IMG/VR virus record: IMGVR_UViG_3300043676_000044
Coordinates: 1-60,690 of that record
Strand: one strand, 5' to 3'
DNA: 60,690 bases
DNA from: a virus
Lineage: Duplodnaviria; Caudoviricetes
The position numbers and the translations under genes are program-made. This document shows positions 1,159-56,019 of this stretch, one piece after another. The notes below the pieces were generated by a model that was not told the DNA's origin, searched no databases, and saw nothing but the letters and a program-made list of their open reading frames with translations. Each line of letters opens with the position of its first letter. Positions within the stretch are counted from its first letter, which is position 1.

Positions 1159-3435
1159 ATGCCCGAGGCGATCCCCGGCCGCTCGCAGTCCTCCCTGCCC
1201 GTGGGCTCCGTCGCACGCGCCGGGCCCGGCGGGTCCTATCCCAATGGACGGGGCTTGCTGCGGGTGGTCACCAGCGATGAGCTGACGCGCCGCGAGAACG
1301 AGCGGCGCATCGGCGCGGGTGCGGGGACGGCCAATAGGCTGACCAAGCCGGTGCCCGACATCGGCGCCTATATCCGCCGCCAGTGGACGATCTTCCGGGA
1401 CCACCGGAACCAGGGTAACAACCCGCTCAATAATCGCCTGCTCCGGGCGCAGCGCATGTTCGAGGGCAAATACGACCCCGAACGCCTCGCTGCGATCCGT
1501 CAGTTCGGCGGGTCCGAGGTGTACGCGCGCCTCGTCGCGGTGAAGTGCCGGGGGGCGTCTTCACTGCTGCGCGACGTATATCTCGGGCCCGACCGACCCT
1601 GGGACATCCAGGCCCAGCCCGACCCGCCGGTGCCGCCCGAGGTGCAGAAGGCGGCGATGCAGCTGGTCGCCGGCGAGGTTGCCACACAGGTGCAGGCGCA
1701 GCAGCCGATACTCCCCGAGCAGGCCAAGACCCGGCTGCAGTCGTTGCTGCATGCCGCACAGCAGGCGGCGGCCGCGAACGCCAACGACCAGGCTGACCGC
1801 GCCGCCGACGCCATCGAGGACCTTCTGGTCGAGGGGCGGTTCTACCAGGCGATGGCGGAGTTCCTGGTCGATGTGCCGTTGTTCCCGTGGGCCTGCATCA
1901 AGGGCCCGACGGTCAGGATGGTGCCGAAGCTGTCCTGGACGCCGAACAAGGACGGCAGCAAGACCGCCTCGATCGAGCGCAAGGCGCAGATGTTCTGGGA
2001 GCGGGTCAGCCCGTTTAACCTCTACTGGACCCCCGGTGTGTCCAACATCGCCGACGCCGCCATCATCGAGCGGCATCGCTTCTCGCGCACCGACATCAAC
2101 GACCTGATCGGGCTGCCCGGCTACGACGAGCAGGCCATCGCGGGGGTGCTGGAGGATTACGACCGCGGCCTCAGGGAGTGGCTGGATAGCCCCGACGCCG
2201 AGCAGGCGATCAACGAGAACCGCGAGGACCCCAACCTCAACCGCTCCGAGATGATCGAGGGGCTCGAGTATCACGGCAACGTCCAGGGCCAGATGCTGAT
2301 CGACGCGGGGATGAGCCCTAAGCTGATCAAGGACCCGCTGCGCGAGTACAACGTCCAGTCCTGGGTGATCGGCCGCTACACGATCAAGACCCTGCTCAAC
2401 CCGATGCCGACCCAGCGCCATCCCTACTATCTTACCAGTTTCGAGAAGGCCCCCGGCACCGTGGTTGGGCACGGGCTGCCGGATTTGCTGGAGGATATGC
2501 AGGAGGTGTGCAACGCCTCGTTGAGAGCGTTGGTGAATAATATGAGTATAGCTTCAGGGCCGCAGGTGGTCGTCAACGACGATAGCCTCTCCCCGGCCGA
2601 GGATGGCAACCAGCTGTATCCGTGGAAACGCTGGCATATCCAGGGCGACCTGTTTACCAACCAGCGTGAGCCGATCACCTTTTTTCAACCCCAGTCGAAT
2701 GCCCAGGAGCTGCTCTCGGTTTACACCGCGATCAGCAACATGGCCGACGAGATCTCGGCGATACCCCGCTACATCACCGGCAGTTCGCAGGGGCTGGGGG
2801 GTGCGGGGCGCACCGCCTCGGGCCTGTCGATGCTGATGGGCAACGCGGAGAAGGTGCTCCAGACGGTGGCGGCGAACATCGACGGGGACATCATGGACCC
2901 GTTGCTGAGCCAGACCTACGACCTGGTGATGATGACGGACCAGACCGGGATGCTCACCGGCGAGGAGGAGATCCGCGTCCGCGGCGTCAACGTCGCGGTG
3001 CAGAAAGAGACCGAGCGCCAGAAGCAGCTCCAGTTCCTGCAGATCACCGCCAACCCGATCGACGCGCCGATCGTCGGCGAGATGGGGCGCGCCCGCGTGC
3101 TGCGCTCGATCGCGCAGGGGCTCGGCCTGCCCGACAACGTGGTCCCCTCGGACCAGGAGCTGCAAGCCAAGCTCGATGCGCAGAAACAGATGCAGGCCGC
3201 CAGTCAGGCGATGCTTGCAGCCTCTGGCGCCGGCCAGCCGGGAGACGCCAATCCCCCCGGCGGGAAACCGGGGCAGCCGGGGCCACCGGCGGGTGGCAAG
3301 CCTGGGACGACTCCCGCCGGTGGCGCCCCGCCCGCCGCACACGCACAGGGACAGCAGGCGCCCACGCCGGGTCCCGCGCAGCTCGAAGACCACGCGCCCC
3401 GCGTCAATCTCATGCAGCAAGGGATACCGAAATAA
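1159..3435 (+). CDS. Portal protein (podovirus type) with Pro/Gly/Gln-rich C-terminal tail
   Basis: 758 aa, first structural gene; portal-like motifs (FEKAPGTVVGHGLPDLL, NNMSIASGPQ, RTASGLSMLM). Confidence 0.88.
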   Translation: MPEAIPGRSQSSLPVGSVARAGPGGSYPNGRGLLRVVTSDELTRRENERRIGAGAGTANRLTKPVPDIGAYIRRQWTIFRDHRNQGNNPLNNRLLRAQRMFEGKYDPERLAAIRQFGGSEVYARLVAVKCRGASSLLRDVYLGPDRPWDIQAQPDPPVPPEVQKAAMQLVAGEVATQVQAQQPILPEQAKTRLQSLLHAAQQAAAANANDQADRAADAIEDLLVEGRFYQAMAEFLVDVPLFPWACIKGPTVRMVPKLSWTPNKDGSKTASIERKAQMFWERVSPFNLYWTPGVSNIADAAIIERHRFSRTDINDLIGLPGYDEQAIAGVLEDYDRGLREWLDSPDAEQAINENREDPNLNRSEMIEGLEYHGNVQGQMLIDAGMSPKLIKDPLREYNVQSWVIGRYTIKTLLNPMPTQRHPYYLTSFEKAPGTVVGHGLPDLLEDMQEVCNASLRALVNNMSIASGPQVVVNDDSLSPAEDGNQLYPWKRWHIQGDLFTNQREPITFFQPQSNAQELLSVYTAISNMADEISAIPRYITGSSQGLGGAGRTASGLSMLMGNAEKVLQTVAANIDGDIMDPLLSQTYDLVMMTDQTGMLTGEEEIRVRGVNVAVQKETERQKQLQFLQITANPIDAPIVGEMGRARVLRSIAQGLGLPDNVVPSDQELQAKLDAQKQMQAASQAMLAASGAGQPGDANPPGGKPGQPGPPAGGKPGTTPAGGAPPAAHAQGQQAPTPGPAQLEDHAPRVNLMQQGIPK

Positions 3436-12860: not shown

Positions 12861-12896
12861 CTCTGTGACCAACTACCGTAATTATAGGAGGAACCA

Positions 12897-50693: not shown

Positions 50694-50695
50694 GA

Positions 50696-51034
50696 TTACG
50701 GTAGTTCCTTGTTGGTGTGATAGATACGTGCCTCAAGCTCGGCGATCATCGCGTCCAGCGCGAGCTTGGGGACGTCGAACAGGGTCCAGTGCCTGGCCGG
50801 CACGATGCAGGGCGCGTCCAAGTGGTCGGTCTCGATGTGCCAGCACTCGATCGGTTTCTCAATCGCGGCCAGCTGCAACGCCGCCTCGGTATACTCAAGA
50901 TCGAACACGAAGTAGCGCAGCCATACGTCGAACGCGGCGCCGGCATCGTCGGCGTGGATTATGCAGTCCTCGCGATTGCCCTCGTTGACCTCCTTGGCGA
51001 CCTCATACTCGATGCCCACCTGATACAGGGCCAT
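50696..51034 (-). CDS. Hypothetical protein (ends ELP)
   Basis: Bounded by motif copies at both ends. Confidence 0.7.
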   Translation of the reverse strand: MALYQVGIEYEVAKEVNEGNREDCIIHADDAGAAFDVWLRYFVFDLEYTEAALQLAAIEKPIECWHIETDHLDAPCIVPARHWTLFDVPKLALDAMIAELEARIYHTNKELP

Positions 51035-51324
51035 TACGGTAGTTCCTTTATCGGGCGTTGCTCGCTGAGACCCGCGACGATCACCACCAGCTCGTTCATG
51101 ACGCTCTCGAGGCGGGCGACGCGAGCGCGGTGCTGGTTGCCCGCGATGGCCTGGGCATTATCCCCCTGCATGTAGTAGTCGCGACCGTGGGGCGCGGTGT
51201 TCGTCTGCAGGTATTCGTGCGCGTCGCTGACCATTTGCAGCGCCATGATGTAGCTATCATACAGGCTGTCGTAGCTGGTGCCGTTGAGATGCACGGTGGG
51301 GATCGCGATGGTGACAAGGGTCAT
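51034..51324 (-). CDS. Hypothetical protein (ends ELP)
   Basis: PTVHLNGT..APHGRDYY pattern; bounded by motif copies. Confidence 0.72.
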   Translation of the reverse strand: MTLVTIAIPTVHLNGTSYDSLYDSYIMALQMVSDAHEYLQTNTAPHGRDYYMQGDNAQAIAGNQHRARVARLESVMNELVVIVAGLSEQRPIKELP

Positions 51325-51352: not shown

Positions 51353-51811
51353 TCAGGGGTAGAGATGCAGCTGGTTCGTGCTGTTGTTGATCGACCACCC
51401 GCAGACATGGCGCAGGAACCCCTGCCCGAGCAGGCCGGTCTCGGTCTGGTTTATCGACATCTCGATATTCTCGACCGTGATGCCCTTGAGCGTGAGCGCA
51501 GGAAGTATGTAGGTCTGCTCGCGGCTGACGGCGCCGTTGGCGAGGTGGAAGTTGACCATGCGGTAGGGTTTCAGGCTGCCGTCGCGGAGCCAGGCCAGGC
51601 CGAGCGAGCGCGGCAGGGACACGTCCCCCGCGCCGCTGTCGAGCACGAAGGTATGCCCGCCTGGCACGTCGCGAAAATAGAACTTGATATGCGGCGTGGA
51701 GTAGGTCGCGAAGTCCAGGTCGTAGCTGACCGGGGTGGGGGAGCACGGGAACGCGGGGGACGCGATCGCGACCGTCATTAGCGCACACGCTCCCAAAAGA
51801 AGCCGTTTCAT
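51353..51811 (-). CDS. Secreted retropepsin-like aspartic protease
   Basis: Signal peptide; FVLDSGA; LANG flap; LLGQGFL. Confidence 0.82.
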   Translation of the reverse strand: MKRLLLGACALMTVAIASPAFPCSPTPVSYDLDFATYSTPHIKFYFRDVPGGHTFVLDSGAGDVSLPRSLGLAWLRDGSLKPYRMVNFHLANGAVSREQTYILPALTLKGITVENIEMSINQTETGLLGQGFLRHVCGWSINNSTNQLHLYP

Positions 51812-52841: not shown

Positions 52842-53010
52842 GACCCCAAAATTGGTCGCTACGATAGTGACTGGGGGTTTTTGGCCCGGAAAGCTTCCAC
52901 CACTATATAAATTGGTCGAGTAGCGGCGGCGCAGGCGGCGCATCATTCGGTTTAATATAGTAGTGGGAGCTTACGCCCCCACCCTACCTTGTAACCACTA
53001 TAGTGATTGG

Positions 53011-53940
53011 TTAGGCAGCCTGGCCCAATGTAGTGGTGGGCGTGGTGGACTGGAACACGCGGCCGTTGAAGGGGGCGAACACGTCAACCACACCCGAAGC
53101 TGGCTCAATTACGGTAGTGGATGGGATAGGCTTGGGTCCGTCGAGCACCTCGGTTGCGCTCGCGGTCGGCTCGCGCGCCTCTACGGCAGCGATCTCACGC
53201 ATGTCCTGCGCGGTGACCGGGCGCGTGACCGGCCCGGCCTCGCCCAGCATCGCGGCGCGCGCCGCCTCCAAGGTTTCGACCTTGACCTTGGACAGGGTAT
53301 CAAACGCAGCCTTCACGTCCTGCTCGGGGAAGTTGAGCGCGATGGTGGAAAGCTCATCCATCATGGCCTTGATCCGCTTGGCGGCCTTGTCGGCCTTGAT
53401 ATCCGGGTCGCACTCGCGGGCATAGGCGGTGATCAGGTCGGGCGCGTCGAGCAATCTGCCGCGCGTCGGCAGGGCCTGCGTCGCGGACATCACGACATGG
53501 TAACGGCGCTTCCATGCCTTGCGTGCGGGCATGTCGGCGTCCTTGCCATTGAGCGCCTTGGCCAGGTCTTCGTCGGCCCACACCGCAAGTGCTGCGTCCA
53601 TGATGGATGGGAAAGCCTCGCGCGTGCCGGGTTGCATGACCACGCGCAGCTCGTTGGCGAAAGTCTTGACGCTGGCGGGAAGTTTCGCGCCGTTGTTCGC
53701 CTCGGCGACAAGTGCCGCGCCCTTGTCTACCTGTTGCGCGGTCCAGGCGTTCTGCGTGGACAGCTCGGCCAGGGTGCGCAGCGTGCCCTCGCGCGTGACC
53801 AGCTCGTTGTCGCGCTTGCCCTGCACGATATCAGCTTCTTTCTTGATATCGTCCAGTTCCATGCTGTGGCGCGACAGCGCGCCCTGAATGGCGTTCTTGA
53901 TGGTCTCCGCGATGGTCGCGGTGTCGAGGAGCATGTTCAT
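53011..53940 (-). CDS. Early hypothetical helical protein
   Basis: 309-aa ORF, AGGA RBS beside a motif copy. Confidence 0.75.
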   Translation of the reverse strand: MNMLLDTATIAETIKNAIQGALSRHSMELDDIKKEADIVQGKRDNELVTREGTLRTLAELSTQNAWTAQQVDKGAALVAEANNGAKLPASVKTFANELRVVMQPGTREAFPSIMDAALAVWADEDLAKALNGKDADMPARKAWKRRYHVVMSATQALPTRGRLLDAPDLITAYARECDPDIKADKAAKRIKAMMDELSTIALNFPEQDVKAAFDTLSKVKVETLEAARAAMLGEAGPVTRPVTAQDMREIAAVEAREPTASATEVLDGPKPIPSTTVIEPASGVVDVFAPFNGRVFQSTTPTTTLGQAA

Positions 53941-53977
53941 AGTGTGTGGGTTCCTGATTACGGTAGTTGATGGGGGG

Positions 53978-54064
53978 TTAGGCGCGGCAGACACAGAAAG
54001 AGAGTTGCAAGCGCCACACTCGCAGAAATCTAAGCCCGCCGACCTTGCGATAACGTAGGGTCAT
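53978..54064 (-). CDS. 28-aa basic peptide
   Basis: TAATG coupling; MTLRYRKVGGLRFLRVWRLQLSFCVCRA. Confidence 0.45.
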   Translation of the reverse strand: MTLRYRKVGGLRFLRVWRLQLSFCVCRA

Positions 54065-54291
54065 TAGCGGGCACCCATGGCGTAGGCGCGGATGGCTTTG
54101 CTGCCGTGATACATCGCGCCCATGGCGTGGCTCGGCAGGTTTCCGGCGATGCAGCCGCCCTTGATCCTGCGGGCGCCGTTGGCGACGCGGGCCGGGCAAC
54201 GCTTGATTACGATGTTCGCGGGGGGCGCAACCACGTCGCGCTTGCCCAGCGTGGGGGCGAGTAGGAACTTGGCAGAGATCGTGGCTCGCAT
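54064..54291 (-). CDS. First early gene, small basic protein
   Basis: GGAG RBS; directly downstream of the hammerhead and a motif copy. Confidence 0.6.
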   Translation of the reverse strand: MRATISAKFLLAPTLGKRDVVAPPANIVIKRCPARVANGARRIKGGCIAGNLPSHAMGAMYHGSKAIRAYAMGAR

Positions 54292-54315
54292 GGGTCACTC
54301 CGATTACGGTAGTTG

Positions 54316-54366
54316 AAGGTTTCGGGTTCGCACCCATCGTCAGCATGGCGAGCAGCCATGGACCTT
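54316..54366 (-). ncRNA. Type III hammerhead ribozyme
   Basis: AAGG-UC / CAUGGC-UGCUC-GCCAUG / CUGACGA-U / GGGU-GCGA-ACCC / GAAA-CCUU: all core nucleotides and three perfectly paired stems. Confidence 0.88.
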
Positions 54367-54745
54367 GCGTGGCGCGGCCTTCCGCGCAACCTACTGCCTC
54401 CGCATGGTGGGTCCATGCATCTACGGGGTCGAGTGTCCGCACCTGCTGCGCTTGTTAGACGCATGGATGCTTAGGCGCCCCTGCCGGCATCATGTGTGCC
54501 GCGTTGCTGCGTCGGGGTGGATCTCATAAGGGGGTGGAAGGAACAACTACCGGTAGTCAGGGGGGCTGGGGGGCCGGGGGGAGTATTGGACAGGGGTGGG
54601 GGGGTGCCTAGGCCGCGGTTAGGTAAGTCACTCACACGACCAGCACTTTTTGAATACTATGTCACCGCCACTACGTTAGTGACTGGGAATGACCACTACA
54701 TTAGTTTTTCTATCTCCACGCCCCCACCCCGCCCAGCAGTATCTC

Positions 54746-54802
54746 TTGCAGACTCGGGGGCACGGCCTTATATAACAATCATGTTTACGGTAGTTATCCA
54801 CA
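54746..54802 (+). promoter_or_regulatory. Sigma70-like promoter, motif copy and one DnaA-box consensus upstream of the HTH gene
   Basis: TTGCAG-N17-TATATA; TTTACGGTAGTT 54784-54795; TTATCCACA 54794-54802; second -35 TTGACG at 54818. Confidence 0.55.
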
Positions 54803-54873
54803 AGCAGTGCAACTAGATTGACGCACGCGGCTTTAGGCGTGTTCTATTCACGAGCTACTAGAAGGGGGTCCAC

Positions 54874-55320
54874 ATGGCGCAAAAGAGTACGCCCAGTCCA
54901 TCCACCCGGTCGCGCAGCCGCAAGGCCCCGCCGCCGGCCAACACCAACTACAATAGCCTGGCTAAGCGCGACAAGGAGCCGTTGCCTGAGATCGACGAGG
55001 ATCTGGCTGAGCGCCTGGTCGAGCTGCTCGCCGCGATCACCGAGACCACGCGCCCGGCGACCAAGAAGGCGCGCCTGCTCGCGTTCATCATCGAGATGGA
55101 CCGGCTCAAGCAGCTGTTCCCTACCCACCAGGTGGTCGCTGACCATATCGGCTGCTCGGTCGACAATATCCGCACCGCGCTGAACGACAGCATCAAGCGC
55201 AAGCTGGTGACCCAGGAGCTGGTGTTTGTTCCCGGTAACATCGCGCGTCGCGAGAGCACCACGCGGCGGCACCGCTACGCACCAACCAGGAGATTAGCGC
55301 CCGTTACTAGTCTGCTGTAA
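54874..55320 (+). CDS. Winged-HTH DNA-binding protein (repressor candidate)
   Basis: FPTHQVVADHIGCSVDNIRTALNDSIKRKLV. Confidence 0.7.
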   Translation: MAQKSTPSPSTRSRSRKAPPPANTNYNSLAKRDKEPLPEIDEDLAERLVELLAAITETTRPATKKARLLAFIIEMDRLKQLFPTHQVVADHIGCSVDNIRTALNDSIKRKLVTQELVFVPGNIARRESTTRRHRYAPTRRLAPVTSLL

Positions 55321-55504
55321 TACTGATAAACGCCCAAAATAAAACTAAATAAAACGGCTTTAAGGCGTGATAAACCGTACCCGACGGGCAGTCGTTAAAA
55401 ATGCGTTATTCTGGCTCGCTCCATTAATCTCCATCTAGACATTTGTCAGGAAGTATGGGGCGAGTCATTTTTACTGTGGCCAGGATGTCACACCGGGTTT
55501 TCGT

Positions 55505-55540
55505 TTGACACCCCCTGACTCGGGATTTAGATTACGGTTT
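55505..55540 (+). promoter_or_regulatory. Sigma70 promoter with a motif variant over the -10 box
   Basis: TTGACA-N17-TAGATT; ATTACGGTTT overlaps the -10. Confidence 0.65.
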
Positions 55541-55571
55541 AATCATGGGGCTTCCACGAAGGAATACCGTA

Positions 55572-55910
55572 ATGCGCCAGCGGCCGGTCCAAACCTCCTC
55601 CCCTCCCGCGAGTCGGGTCCAGTCTGGAAATGCAGCAGACGCGCAACCGCTACTTCACATGGCCGTGCGCTCGCCGCCGCGGGCGGTGTCGCAGATCGGG
55701 CCGCCGGTCCCCCGCGTCCGCCGTGCCTCCGAGATGAAACTGGCGATAGATCGCGCGCTTGAGGCGGTCGGACGGCTGTCGGACCAGCTGGGCGATGGCG
55801 GGGGCGGCATGAGCGATCAGGAGCTGGTTCAGGTCGCGCAGGGGTTCGTGCGCGCCGTGGCGACCGCCGGGACCCGCCTCGCCTGTATCATAACGCCAAT
55901 AAAGCTATAA
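55572..55910 (+). CDS. Hypothetical protein
   Basis: AAGGA-ATACCGTA-ATG start after a strong promoter. Confidence 0.5.
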   Translation: MRQRPVQTSSPPASRVQSGNAADAQPLLHMAVRSPPRAVSQIGPPVPRVRRASEMKLAIDRALEAVGRLSDQLGDGGGGMSDQELVQVAQGFVRAVATAGTRLACIITPIKL

Positions 55911-56019
55911 CTCTCCGTCGCGTACGGTAAGTAAGCTTTCAAGCTTGCCAGCTGTGGCGGAAGTGTATTAGATCGCCCCACCCCGTCGTGCATACGCGCA
56001 TGGCGTGGAGAGGGGAACC

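Follow-up and report, generated by a model that had tools for sequence, protein, structure and literature searches.

Hundreds of hammerhead ribozymes are known from phages and prophages, and their biological role is still called an open question (PMC6155905; PMC6765202). According to the text of Perreault et al. (PMC3088659), phage hammerheads have been proposed to process long transcripts, and the same text places the hammerhead of the haloviruses HF1 and HF2 13 nt ahead of the first open reading frame (ORF) of a polycistronic early transcript; the mapped 5′ end of this transcript is no more than 3 nt away from the point of cleavage. The class typified by the sTRSV ribozyme is characterised in the text of Chi et al. 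2008 (PMC2553840) by a contact between the stem II tetraloop, typically GNRA, and the closed loop of stem I, which includes a conserved Hoogsteen pair between the last A of the tetraloop and the U adjacent to residue 1.6. In the engineered element RiboJ, an sTRSV hammerhead stands before the ribosome-binding site (RBS), and the text describing it gives increases in E. coli of 2-10 fold in protein and about 2 fold in transcript (PMC6206723).

Here we describe a hammerhead motif in the genome of an uncultured phage from soil or sediment. The window, that is, the whole stretch of 60,690 nt that was analysed, comes from an IMG/VR virus record that is linear and estimated to be 96% complete. The plus-strand genes, which extend up to ~32.7 kb, encode virion proteins (adaptor/portal, major head protein, internal virion protein and tail fibres). 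The minus-strand genes run from 54291 to ~33166 and encode a MoxR-like ATPase, a DUF2201 metallopeptidase/VWA protein, an exonuclease, a helicase and a DUF927 primase/helicase, and to the right of 54874 lie small ORFs, a ParA-like ATPase and a Rep-like HTH protein. This layout places the motif in a ~580-nt divergent non-coding region, just before the first leftward replication ORF, in agreement with the initial annotation, which had put it at the head of an early operon. The early timing given there to this operon is suggested by its gene content. The first ORF gave no PHROG or Pfam match. Since a scan of 54000-55000 found no sigma-70-like promoter or terminator, the transcript is assumed from gene orientation only; no RNA run containing the locus turned up either.

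Table 1. Coordinates of the ribozyme, its neighbouring features and related sites. Positions are those of the window except in the last row. L003 is a metagenome contig with an orthologous locus, L017 is a locus in another viral genome and R1 is a covariance model (see text).
Feature	Position	Strand	Remark
Whole type III hammerhead motif, 51 nt	54316..54366	-	Sequence read, single descriptor match and R1 score
Stem III 5′ strand AAGGU, U16.1 at 54362	54362..54366	-	Pairs with 54316-54320; L003 identical
C17, predicted cut 3′ of C17, between 54361 and 54360	54361	-	Canonical GUC placement
Stem I hairpin CAUGGC (54360-54355) / GCCAUG (54349-54344), 6 bp, loop 1 UGCUC	54344..54360	-	Sequence read
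Core C3 U4 G5 A6 C7 G8 A9 = CUGACGA	54337..54343	-	Unchanged in L003 orthologue
Extra U between A9 and G10.1	54336	-	Sequence read; kept in L003/L004
Stem II hairpin GGGU-GCGA-ACCC, 4 bp	54324..54335	-	Stem same in orthologue, whose loop is CCGA
G12 A13 A14 (54323-54321), then stem III 3′ strand A15.1-CCUU (54320-54316)	54316..54323	-	Unchanged in orthologue
C, single base separating ribozyme from motif copy AACUACCGUAAU	54315	-	
Motif copy AACUACCGUAAU	54303..54314	-	1 nt after ribozyme
GGAG, Shine-Dalgarno-like site	54298..54301	-	Sequence read
First ORF after ribozyme, 75 aa	54064..54291	-	GC3 0.86; 76-codon ORF in L003
Second gene, 309 aa, no family match	53011..53940	-	Conserved in L003; used to find orthologous loci
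Example AACTACCGTAAT sites	54303-54314(-), 53957-53968(-), 51033-51044(-), 50695-50706(-), 12871-12882(+)		
L017 hammerhead copies (L017 coordinates)	245-299, 1092-1146, 1585-1638, 1911-1965	-	R1

The motif folds into three helices round a junction, whereby stems I and II are closed by loops and stem III is open (6, 4 and 5 bp, respectively), and the element-by-element hammerhead layout proposed in the initial annotation was borne out in full when the minus strand was read (Table 1). The G10.1-C11.1 pair (G 54335 with C 54324) and the A15.1-U16.1 pair (A 54320 with U 54362) are both present, and the cleavage-site base is C, not G. All hallmarks of a type III hammerhead in sequence and secondary structure are found except an insertion-free core, which is interrupted by the one U at 54336, and a score from Rfam. 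Single-sequence folds recovered stems I and II and not stem III (z -1.17, not significant). Folds of the region were unremarkable overall (z -0.73 to -1.96) and showed neither a ligand-binding structure nor any other conserved one.

The likeness to sTRSV-like type III ribozymes (RF00008) is close, as these have the same open stem III and the same succession of GUC, stem I hairpin, CUGANGA, stem II hairpin and GAAA. The 6-bp stem I followed by U, and the 4-bp stem II with a tetraloop that ends in A, also agree with sTRSV as given in the text of PMC2553840. By contrast, the extra U, the lack of an RF00008 match at E<=10 and the non-GNRA tetraloop of the relative set the phage motif apart from this class, as does its being DNA-encoded in a phage, whereas the sTRSV type is carried in a circular RNA replicon. 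The HF1/HF2 hammerhead (HHphage) shares with the motif a location shortly upstream of the first ORF of a polycistronic replication/early transcript in a dsDNA virus, a transcript that is predicted in our case; in the text of PMC3088659, however, HHphage is set apart by unusual insertions close to C3 and stem I, is of archaeal halovirus origin and stands 13 nt from the start codon, compared with 24 nt from the ribozyme end and 69 nt from the cut to the ATG at 54291 here. Gene-flanking hammerheads of phages and prophages, as treated in the texts of PMC3088659 and PMC6155905, are likewise intergenic, phage-borne and proposed to process long transcripts, but the present motif is a single copy at the head of an operon and does not lie between cistrons. 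Finally, RiboJ as described in the text of PMC6206723 is also a type III hammerhead directly upstream of the RBS, which removes the promoter-derived leader and stays on the mRNA, a behaviour that is predicted here; RiboJ is engineered, with an added hairpin after the ribozyme, whereas in the phage a start-associated motif follows.

We searched both strands of the window with a type III descriptor (stem I of >=4 bp, stem II of >=3 bp and stem III of >=4 bp with U16.1-A15.1 as its first pair; any base but G at H17; no more than one base inserted after A9), and the only match was 54366-54316 (-). Among 400 random windows, generated with a first-order Markov model to match the length and dinucleotide composition of the real one, there was one relaxed match and none with equally long stems. 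Rfam 15 reported no family at gathering score in the whole window and no hammerhead family at E<=10 in sub-windows of 501 nt and 86 nt, and in the phage record, where 7 candidates were scored, RF00008 (54 positions, gathering score 48.5 bits) matched nothing at E<=10. The check named in the initial annotation, a match to Rfam Hammerhead_3, thus failed even at E<=10. Rfam 15 also misses comparable extra-U phage hammerheads. When 20 viral loci with clear extra-U hammerheads were supplied as a control, no extra-U site was reported at gathering score, and the matches obtained, a type II hammerhead (L038), a twister-P5 (L076) and a tRNA (L073), all lay elsewhere. At E<=10, none of 8 extra-U sites in five loci was reported, the sole match being a canonical type I hammerhead without the extra U (L010; 21.4 bits compared with a cut-off of 52). 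Because Rfam 15 misses every control extra-U hammerhead, its silence does not refute the motif.

A covariance model, R1, was built from phage type III hammerheads with the studied phage excluded. MAFFT misaligned two of eight type III sequences, leaving six for the model (L005, L016, L017, L038, L065 and L079; alignment A6). With filters off, R1 matched the window at 54366-54316 (-) over its full length (1-55) with 50.3 bits (E 3.7e-11, a rough value), of which the share of the core and stem II is there by construction, because the training set was fetched with the core/stem II pattern of this very ribozyme, and the parts independent of the pattern are stems I and III, the topology and C17. 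The second-best match scored 11.9 bits, and in this window search the studied phage has a single R1-type copy. R1 also recovers L003, L090, L114 and three more copies in L017. In alignment A8, which holds 13 type III sequences and in which the figures lean towards the structure as it was fitted to R1 and six of its rows are the training set, 97.9% of cells are paired, compared with 33-44% when the partners are slid by 1-3 columns; 11 of the 15 pairs are changed on both sides, including all six of stem I, and the covariation score was reached by none of 500 shuffles. The gap between true and slid pairing is large despite the fitting to the model, which makes the helices credible. The GUC triplet is present in all 13 aligned sequences.

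Megablast of 53000-56000 against the INPHARED phages gave no match, and tblastn with the 390-aa ATPase found distant phages only, the best being Rhizobium phage RHph_TM3_14A (28% identity), whose whole record contains no R1-type hammerhead. No relatives were found by protein or pattern among 185,579 species genomes (GTDB). IMG/VR contains one near-identical contig only, with an identical ribozyme region, and the 309-aa protein has just two other homologues (60-61% identity) in a set of 5.8 billion proteins. The metagenome contigs L003 and L004 were retrieved with an alignment of these three proteins (59% identity), and both have a descriptor match at the syntenic place, ahead of a 76-codon ORF that precedes the 309-aa homologue. 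The orthologous ribozyme is known as two sequence types only, since L001/L002 and three DNA runs all have the same letters there. Contigs of the DNA runs X4, X9 and X10 were compared with 53900-54900, for which a further run, X11, gave no contig. Those spanning the ribozyme are invariant within it, and the nearest strain differences fall at 54422, 54151 and 54142, with parts of 54444-54650 uncovered in some runs; these contigs provide no covariation because the strains are near-identical.

The ribozyme of L003/L004 reads AAGGUC CACAGG UUCUC CCUGUG CUGACGA U GGGU CCGA ACCC GAAA CCUU and is identical to that of the window at 43 of 51 bases. Six of the eight differences make up three double-sided compensatory changes in stem I, which becomes CACAGG/CCUGUG (U-A to C-G, G-C to A-U and C-G to G-C, from window to orthologue). 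The remaining two lie in loop 1 (G to U) and loop 2 (G to C), and no change affects stem II, stem III, the GUC, the core or the extra U. As the flanks of the ribozyme in the window and L003 are only 41% identical over 134 upstream alignment columns and 58% identical over the downstream ORF (133/228 bases), the ribozyme is the best conserved stretch of the region. An orthologue with compensatory changes is strong comparative evidence for selection on the fold, and these three pairs, together with the R1 score, uphold the earlier claim of a complete type III hammerhead motif. They also bear on the possibility that the motif is a chance resemblance within a G+C-rich intergenic region. The absent Rfam match is the one observation that speaks for it; against it stand the random windows, of which 0 of 400 was equally good, the compensatory conservation in a relative whose flanks have diverged, and the score with R1. 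We therefore rejected chance, which we regard as wholly improbable. From its sequence, 54366-54316 (-) is most likely a hammerhead in identity and is predicted to work like one, and the element is a real yet fairly ordinary addition to the known phage hammerheads. We also considered a 14-mer, AAGGTCGAAACCTT, in which the six bases of the ribozyme's 5′ end and the eight of its 3′ end are joined; it lies within the 309-aa gene at 53283-53270 (-), where it was the third match of R1 in the window, is absent from L003, was set aside and is probably a coincidence.

The inserted U recurs in other viruses. A search of IMG/VR with the pattern CTGANGATGGGN{3,8}CCCGAAAC (CTGANGA-T-GGG...CCC-GAAA) found at least 124 stretches. 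Among 100 distinct contexts in the matches listed, 80 are type I, 12 are type III and 8 are neither, which gives 92 complete hammerheads, in all of which the extra U was required by the fetch pattern. Because two of the 12 type III contexts belong to the lineage of the studied phage and L122 is close to a copy of L090, the independent type III examples number nine. The extra U is found in 13 of 13 type III sequences of A8, for which R1 itself contains the U, and it is kept in three L017 copies missed by the DNA pattern, as their stem II is of the GGCC-, GGCU- or GACC-type. Record G001, to which L017 belongs, is a complete 48-kb viral genome; near one of its ends, a stretch of 1.8 kb contains four type III hammerheads with the extra U. 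Another complete genome, G002, has a single type III copy at 1501-1555. Downstream of the ribozyme, an ORF start is found within 3-40 nt in 9 of 9 independent type III members among the matches listed; in two of them (L038 and L079) a TTG was picked at +3, whereas an ATG after GGAGGG sits at +18, and the mechanical ORF lists round the type III hammerheads other than ours cannot separate a place at the head of an operon from one between cistrons. Ribozymes of other kinds were also observed near extra-U sites in unrelated viral contigs: a twister-P5 (L076 1954-2020 (-), 54.1 bits), a type II hammerhead (L038 544-609 (-), 37.5 bits compared with a cut-off of 37) and the canonical type I hammerhead of L010, at 1881-1932 (+).

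A base inserted at this point of the core has precedents. The CChMVd (+) hammerhead carries an extra A between A9 and G10.1 and cleaves, with a moderately lower trans-cleavage rate according to the text of PMC1636495, and in the hammerheads of Penelope elements the base at the A9/G10.1 position is conserved (PMC4209133). The phage ribozyme resembles both in that the same core position carries one inserted base. It differs in that this base is U and is common to many phage hammerheads of types I and III, whereas the precedents come from a viroid and from eukaryotic retroelements. Since CChMVd (+), the Penelope elements and the 92 phage hammerheads share an occupied position, the extra U is a known kind of variant and is no ground for excluding the motif. 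The text of Perreault et al. 2011 (PMC3088659), taken apart from its figures and supplements, treats the core insertions A6a, U13a and 2a/2b and not one at A9/G10.1, and no description of an extra-U class of phage hammerheads was found in the non-subscription literature that was covered. The size of the extra-U class in viral contigs and its absence from the Rfam results obtained here go somewhat beyond what is known, and so, to the same degree, does the regularity with which its type III members are found just ahead of a start codon. As Rfam 15 reported none of the extra-U phage hammerheads supplied to it, annotation pipelines probably undercount them, which is a practical gap.

The contact between loop 1 and loop 2 that the initial annotation had drawn from the sTRSV class was borne out in part. 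In the window, a U directly follows the 6-bp stem I and the GCGA loop ends in A, and the orthologue retains both bases; U is also the first base after stem I in 13 of 13 rows of A8. The GNRA character of the tetraloop, on the other hand, is not conserved, the relative having CCGA, and no covariation was found between the loops: the substitutions G to U in loop 1 and G to C in loop 2 do not covary.

Immediately downstream, the ribozyme abuts a copy of a repeated motif, an arrangement pointed out in the initial annotation and confirmed here both in the window and in L003/L004, where the motif likewise follows the ribozyme, 2 nt later. Allowing <=2 mismatches, AACTACCGTAAT occurs 52 times in the window, compared with 0.79 copies expected, and the copies are mostly oriented with the local genes. 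They take two placements, either ahead of a Shine-Dalgarno-like GGAG/AGGA, with the ATG 8-16 nt later, or between a Shine-Dalgarno-like AAGG/GAGG/GGAG and an ATG, in which case the ATG overlaps the motif or comes right after it. Cluster K mycobacteriophages reportedly have start-associated sequences, in which one short motif recurs directly ahead of many start codons. AACTACCGTAAT is like these in its repetition before starts and unlike them in sequence and host, and the likeness concerns the neighbouring motif, not the ribozyme. Were the AACUACCGUAAU copy a promoter, the mRNA of the operon might begin past the ribozyme, and this would speak against a trimming of that mRNA by the ribozyme. In the divergent control region, ACTACCGGTAGT, at 54557-54546, is a perfect palindrome of 12 nt. 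As its two halves are copies of the motif's first half in inverted orientation, a DNA-binding dimer may recognise the motif half-site.

The stretch between the ribozyme and the divergent genes, 54367-54873, contains no convincing minus-strand gene. Within this otherwise diverged leader, a block, CCCCCTTATGAGAnCCAnCCCCGACGCAG, at 54534-54507 (-) is conserved with L003 (about 720-755 there) and is a candidate promoter or operator; its distance to the ribozyme is ~140 nt in the window compared with ~390 nt in L003. C-rich tracts are found in the control region at 54561-54605. A G+C-rich hairpin, GCGCGG-AAGG-CCGCGC, lies at 54369-54384 (-), 2 nt upstream of the ribozyme; it has no U tract and is absent from L003.

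What might a hammerhead do at this place? We consider it reasonably likely that a functional, sTRSV-like type III ribozyme trims the leader of the replication operon and so gives its mRNA a 5′ end that would be fixed, promoter-independent and probably more stable. Transcription of the minus strand would carry the ribozyme within the long untranslated leader of the leftward replication operon, and self-cleavage would take place after C17. The upstream leader would leave with a 2′,3′-cyclic phosphate. A type III hammerhead is cut close to its own 5′ end, so that the downstream product would start with a 5′-OH and keep stems I and II, followed by the start-associated motif, GGAG and the ATG. These end groups are those predicted by the established hammerhead mechanism, and we infer the minus-strand transcription, the cleavage and the effects on stability and translation alike. 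A fixed, structured 5′ end would free the translation start from its upstream context, 5′-end-dependent decay would probably be slowed by the ribozyme-capped end, and the ribozyme would be a natural counterpart of the synthetic RiboJ insulator. In favour of this reading are the ORF starts close behind all nine independent type III members, the HF1/HF2 precedent, the transcript processing proposed by Perreault et al. and the gains in transcript and protein obtained with RiboJ, which shares the architecture. In Bacillus subtilis, the 5′-OH product of the glmS ribozyme is degraded faster and not protected, which counts against stabilisation. The setting is unusually clean, with a single copy at the head of a replication operon, a fixed short distance to the RBS and an orthologue, and it makes the idea of 5′-end definition or protection directly testable by reporter.

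An active ribozyme might, alternatively, serve its upstream product, by releasing the non-coding leader RNA of the ~500-nt control region with a 2′,3′-cyclic phosphate at its 3′ end (as a regulatory RNA, primer or antisense), or by merely uncoupling that RNA from the mRNA. The long gene-free stretch upstream, the CCCCCTTATGAGAnCCAnCCCCGACGCAG block conserved amid 41% identity, the palindrome ACTACCGGTAGT with the C-rich tracts and the adjoining genes for ParA-like and Rep-like HTH proteins would all suit such a role. However, the feature that is constant in the nine other type III members is a nearby downstream start codon and nothing upstream, the type III topology leaves the body of the ribozyme on the downstream mRNA, and the spacing between block and ribozyme differs between the relatives, so we judge a role of the upstream RNA to be improbable. 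We give an equally small chance to an active ribozyme that lowers or gates expression, either because the 5′-OH would mark the mRNA for decay, as with glmS, or because cleavage would be modulated by a motif-bound protein or by Mg2+, with output following the cleaved fraction. In both relatives, no more than 1-2 nt separate the 3′ strand of stem III from the repeated motif, and a factor bound to the motif could thus affect stem III, but the motif precedes most genes of the phage, and its adjacency to the ribozyme may therefore only reflect the nearby start codon. Regulated cleavage of phage hammerheads is raised in the text of Perreault et al. (PMC3088659), and an extra base at A9/G10.1 lowers the rate of CChMVd as given in the text of PMC1636495. 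Arguing the other way, the unremarkable folds offer no ligand-binding or alternative structure, stems I and II at the 5′ end would hinder 5′ exonucleases, and RiboJ, which has the same architecture, raises expression in E. coli (text of PMC6206723).

Less probable still, and in our view very unlikely, is a conserved RNA or DNA structure that does not cleave, e.g. two protein-bound hairpins, the inserted U blocking a useful cleavage rate. This would be in keeping with the failure of the Rfam models to recognise the element and with the inactivity of some predicted core variants in the text of Perreault et al. (PMC3088659). Between the relatives, however, the catalytic core bases, A15.1-U16.1 and C17 are invariant and the stems vary by compensation, a pattern to be expected of a ribozyme and not of simple hairpins. 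The extra U is moreover shared by all 13 type III sequences, as well as by the 92 complete hammerheads, for which it was a requirement of the pattern, and hammerheads with a base at the A9/G10.1 position are known to cleave (text of PMC1636495). Leader trimming by an active ribozyme is the reading we prefer. It might, tentatively, be taken further, to a wider picture that we hold to be possible and rather doubtful: a large phage class unreported by Rfam would have an obligatory U between A9 and G10.1, its type III members would be natural RiboJ-like 5′-UTR modules that stand 12-40 nt ahead of start codons and set the 5′ end, and through it the stability and translation, of mRNAs, and the module of this phage lineage would be fused to the genome-wide motif AACUACCGUAAU, which could place the first replication gene under the joint action of cleavage and a motif-binding factor.

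Further along the replication operon, a 152-aa ORF at 51353-51811 (-) scores above the cut-offs of two retropepsin-like aspartyl protease families, PF13975 (32.9 bits) and PF13650 (29.8 bits), a domain that is unusual for a phage.
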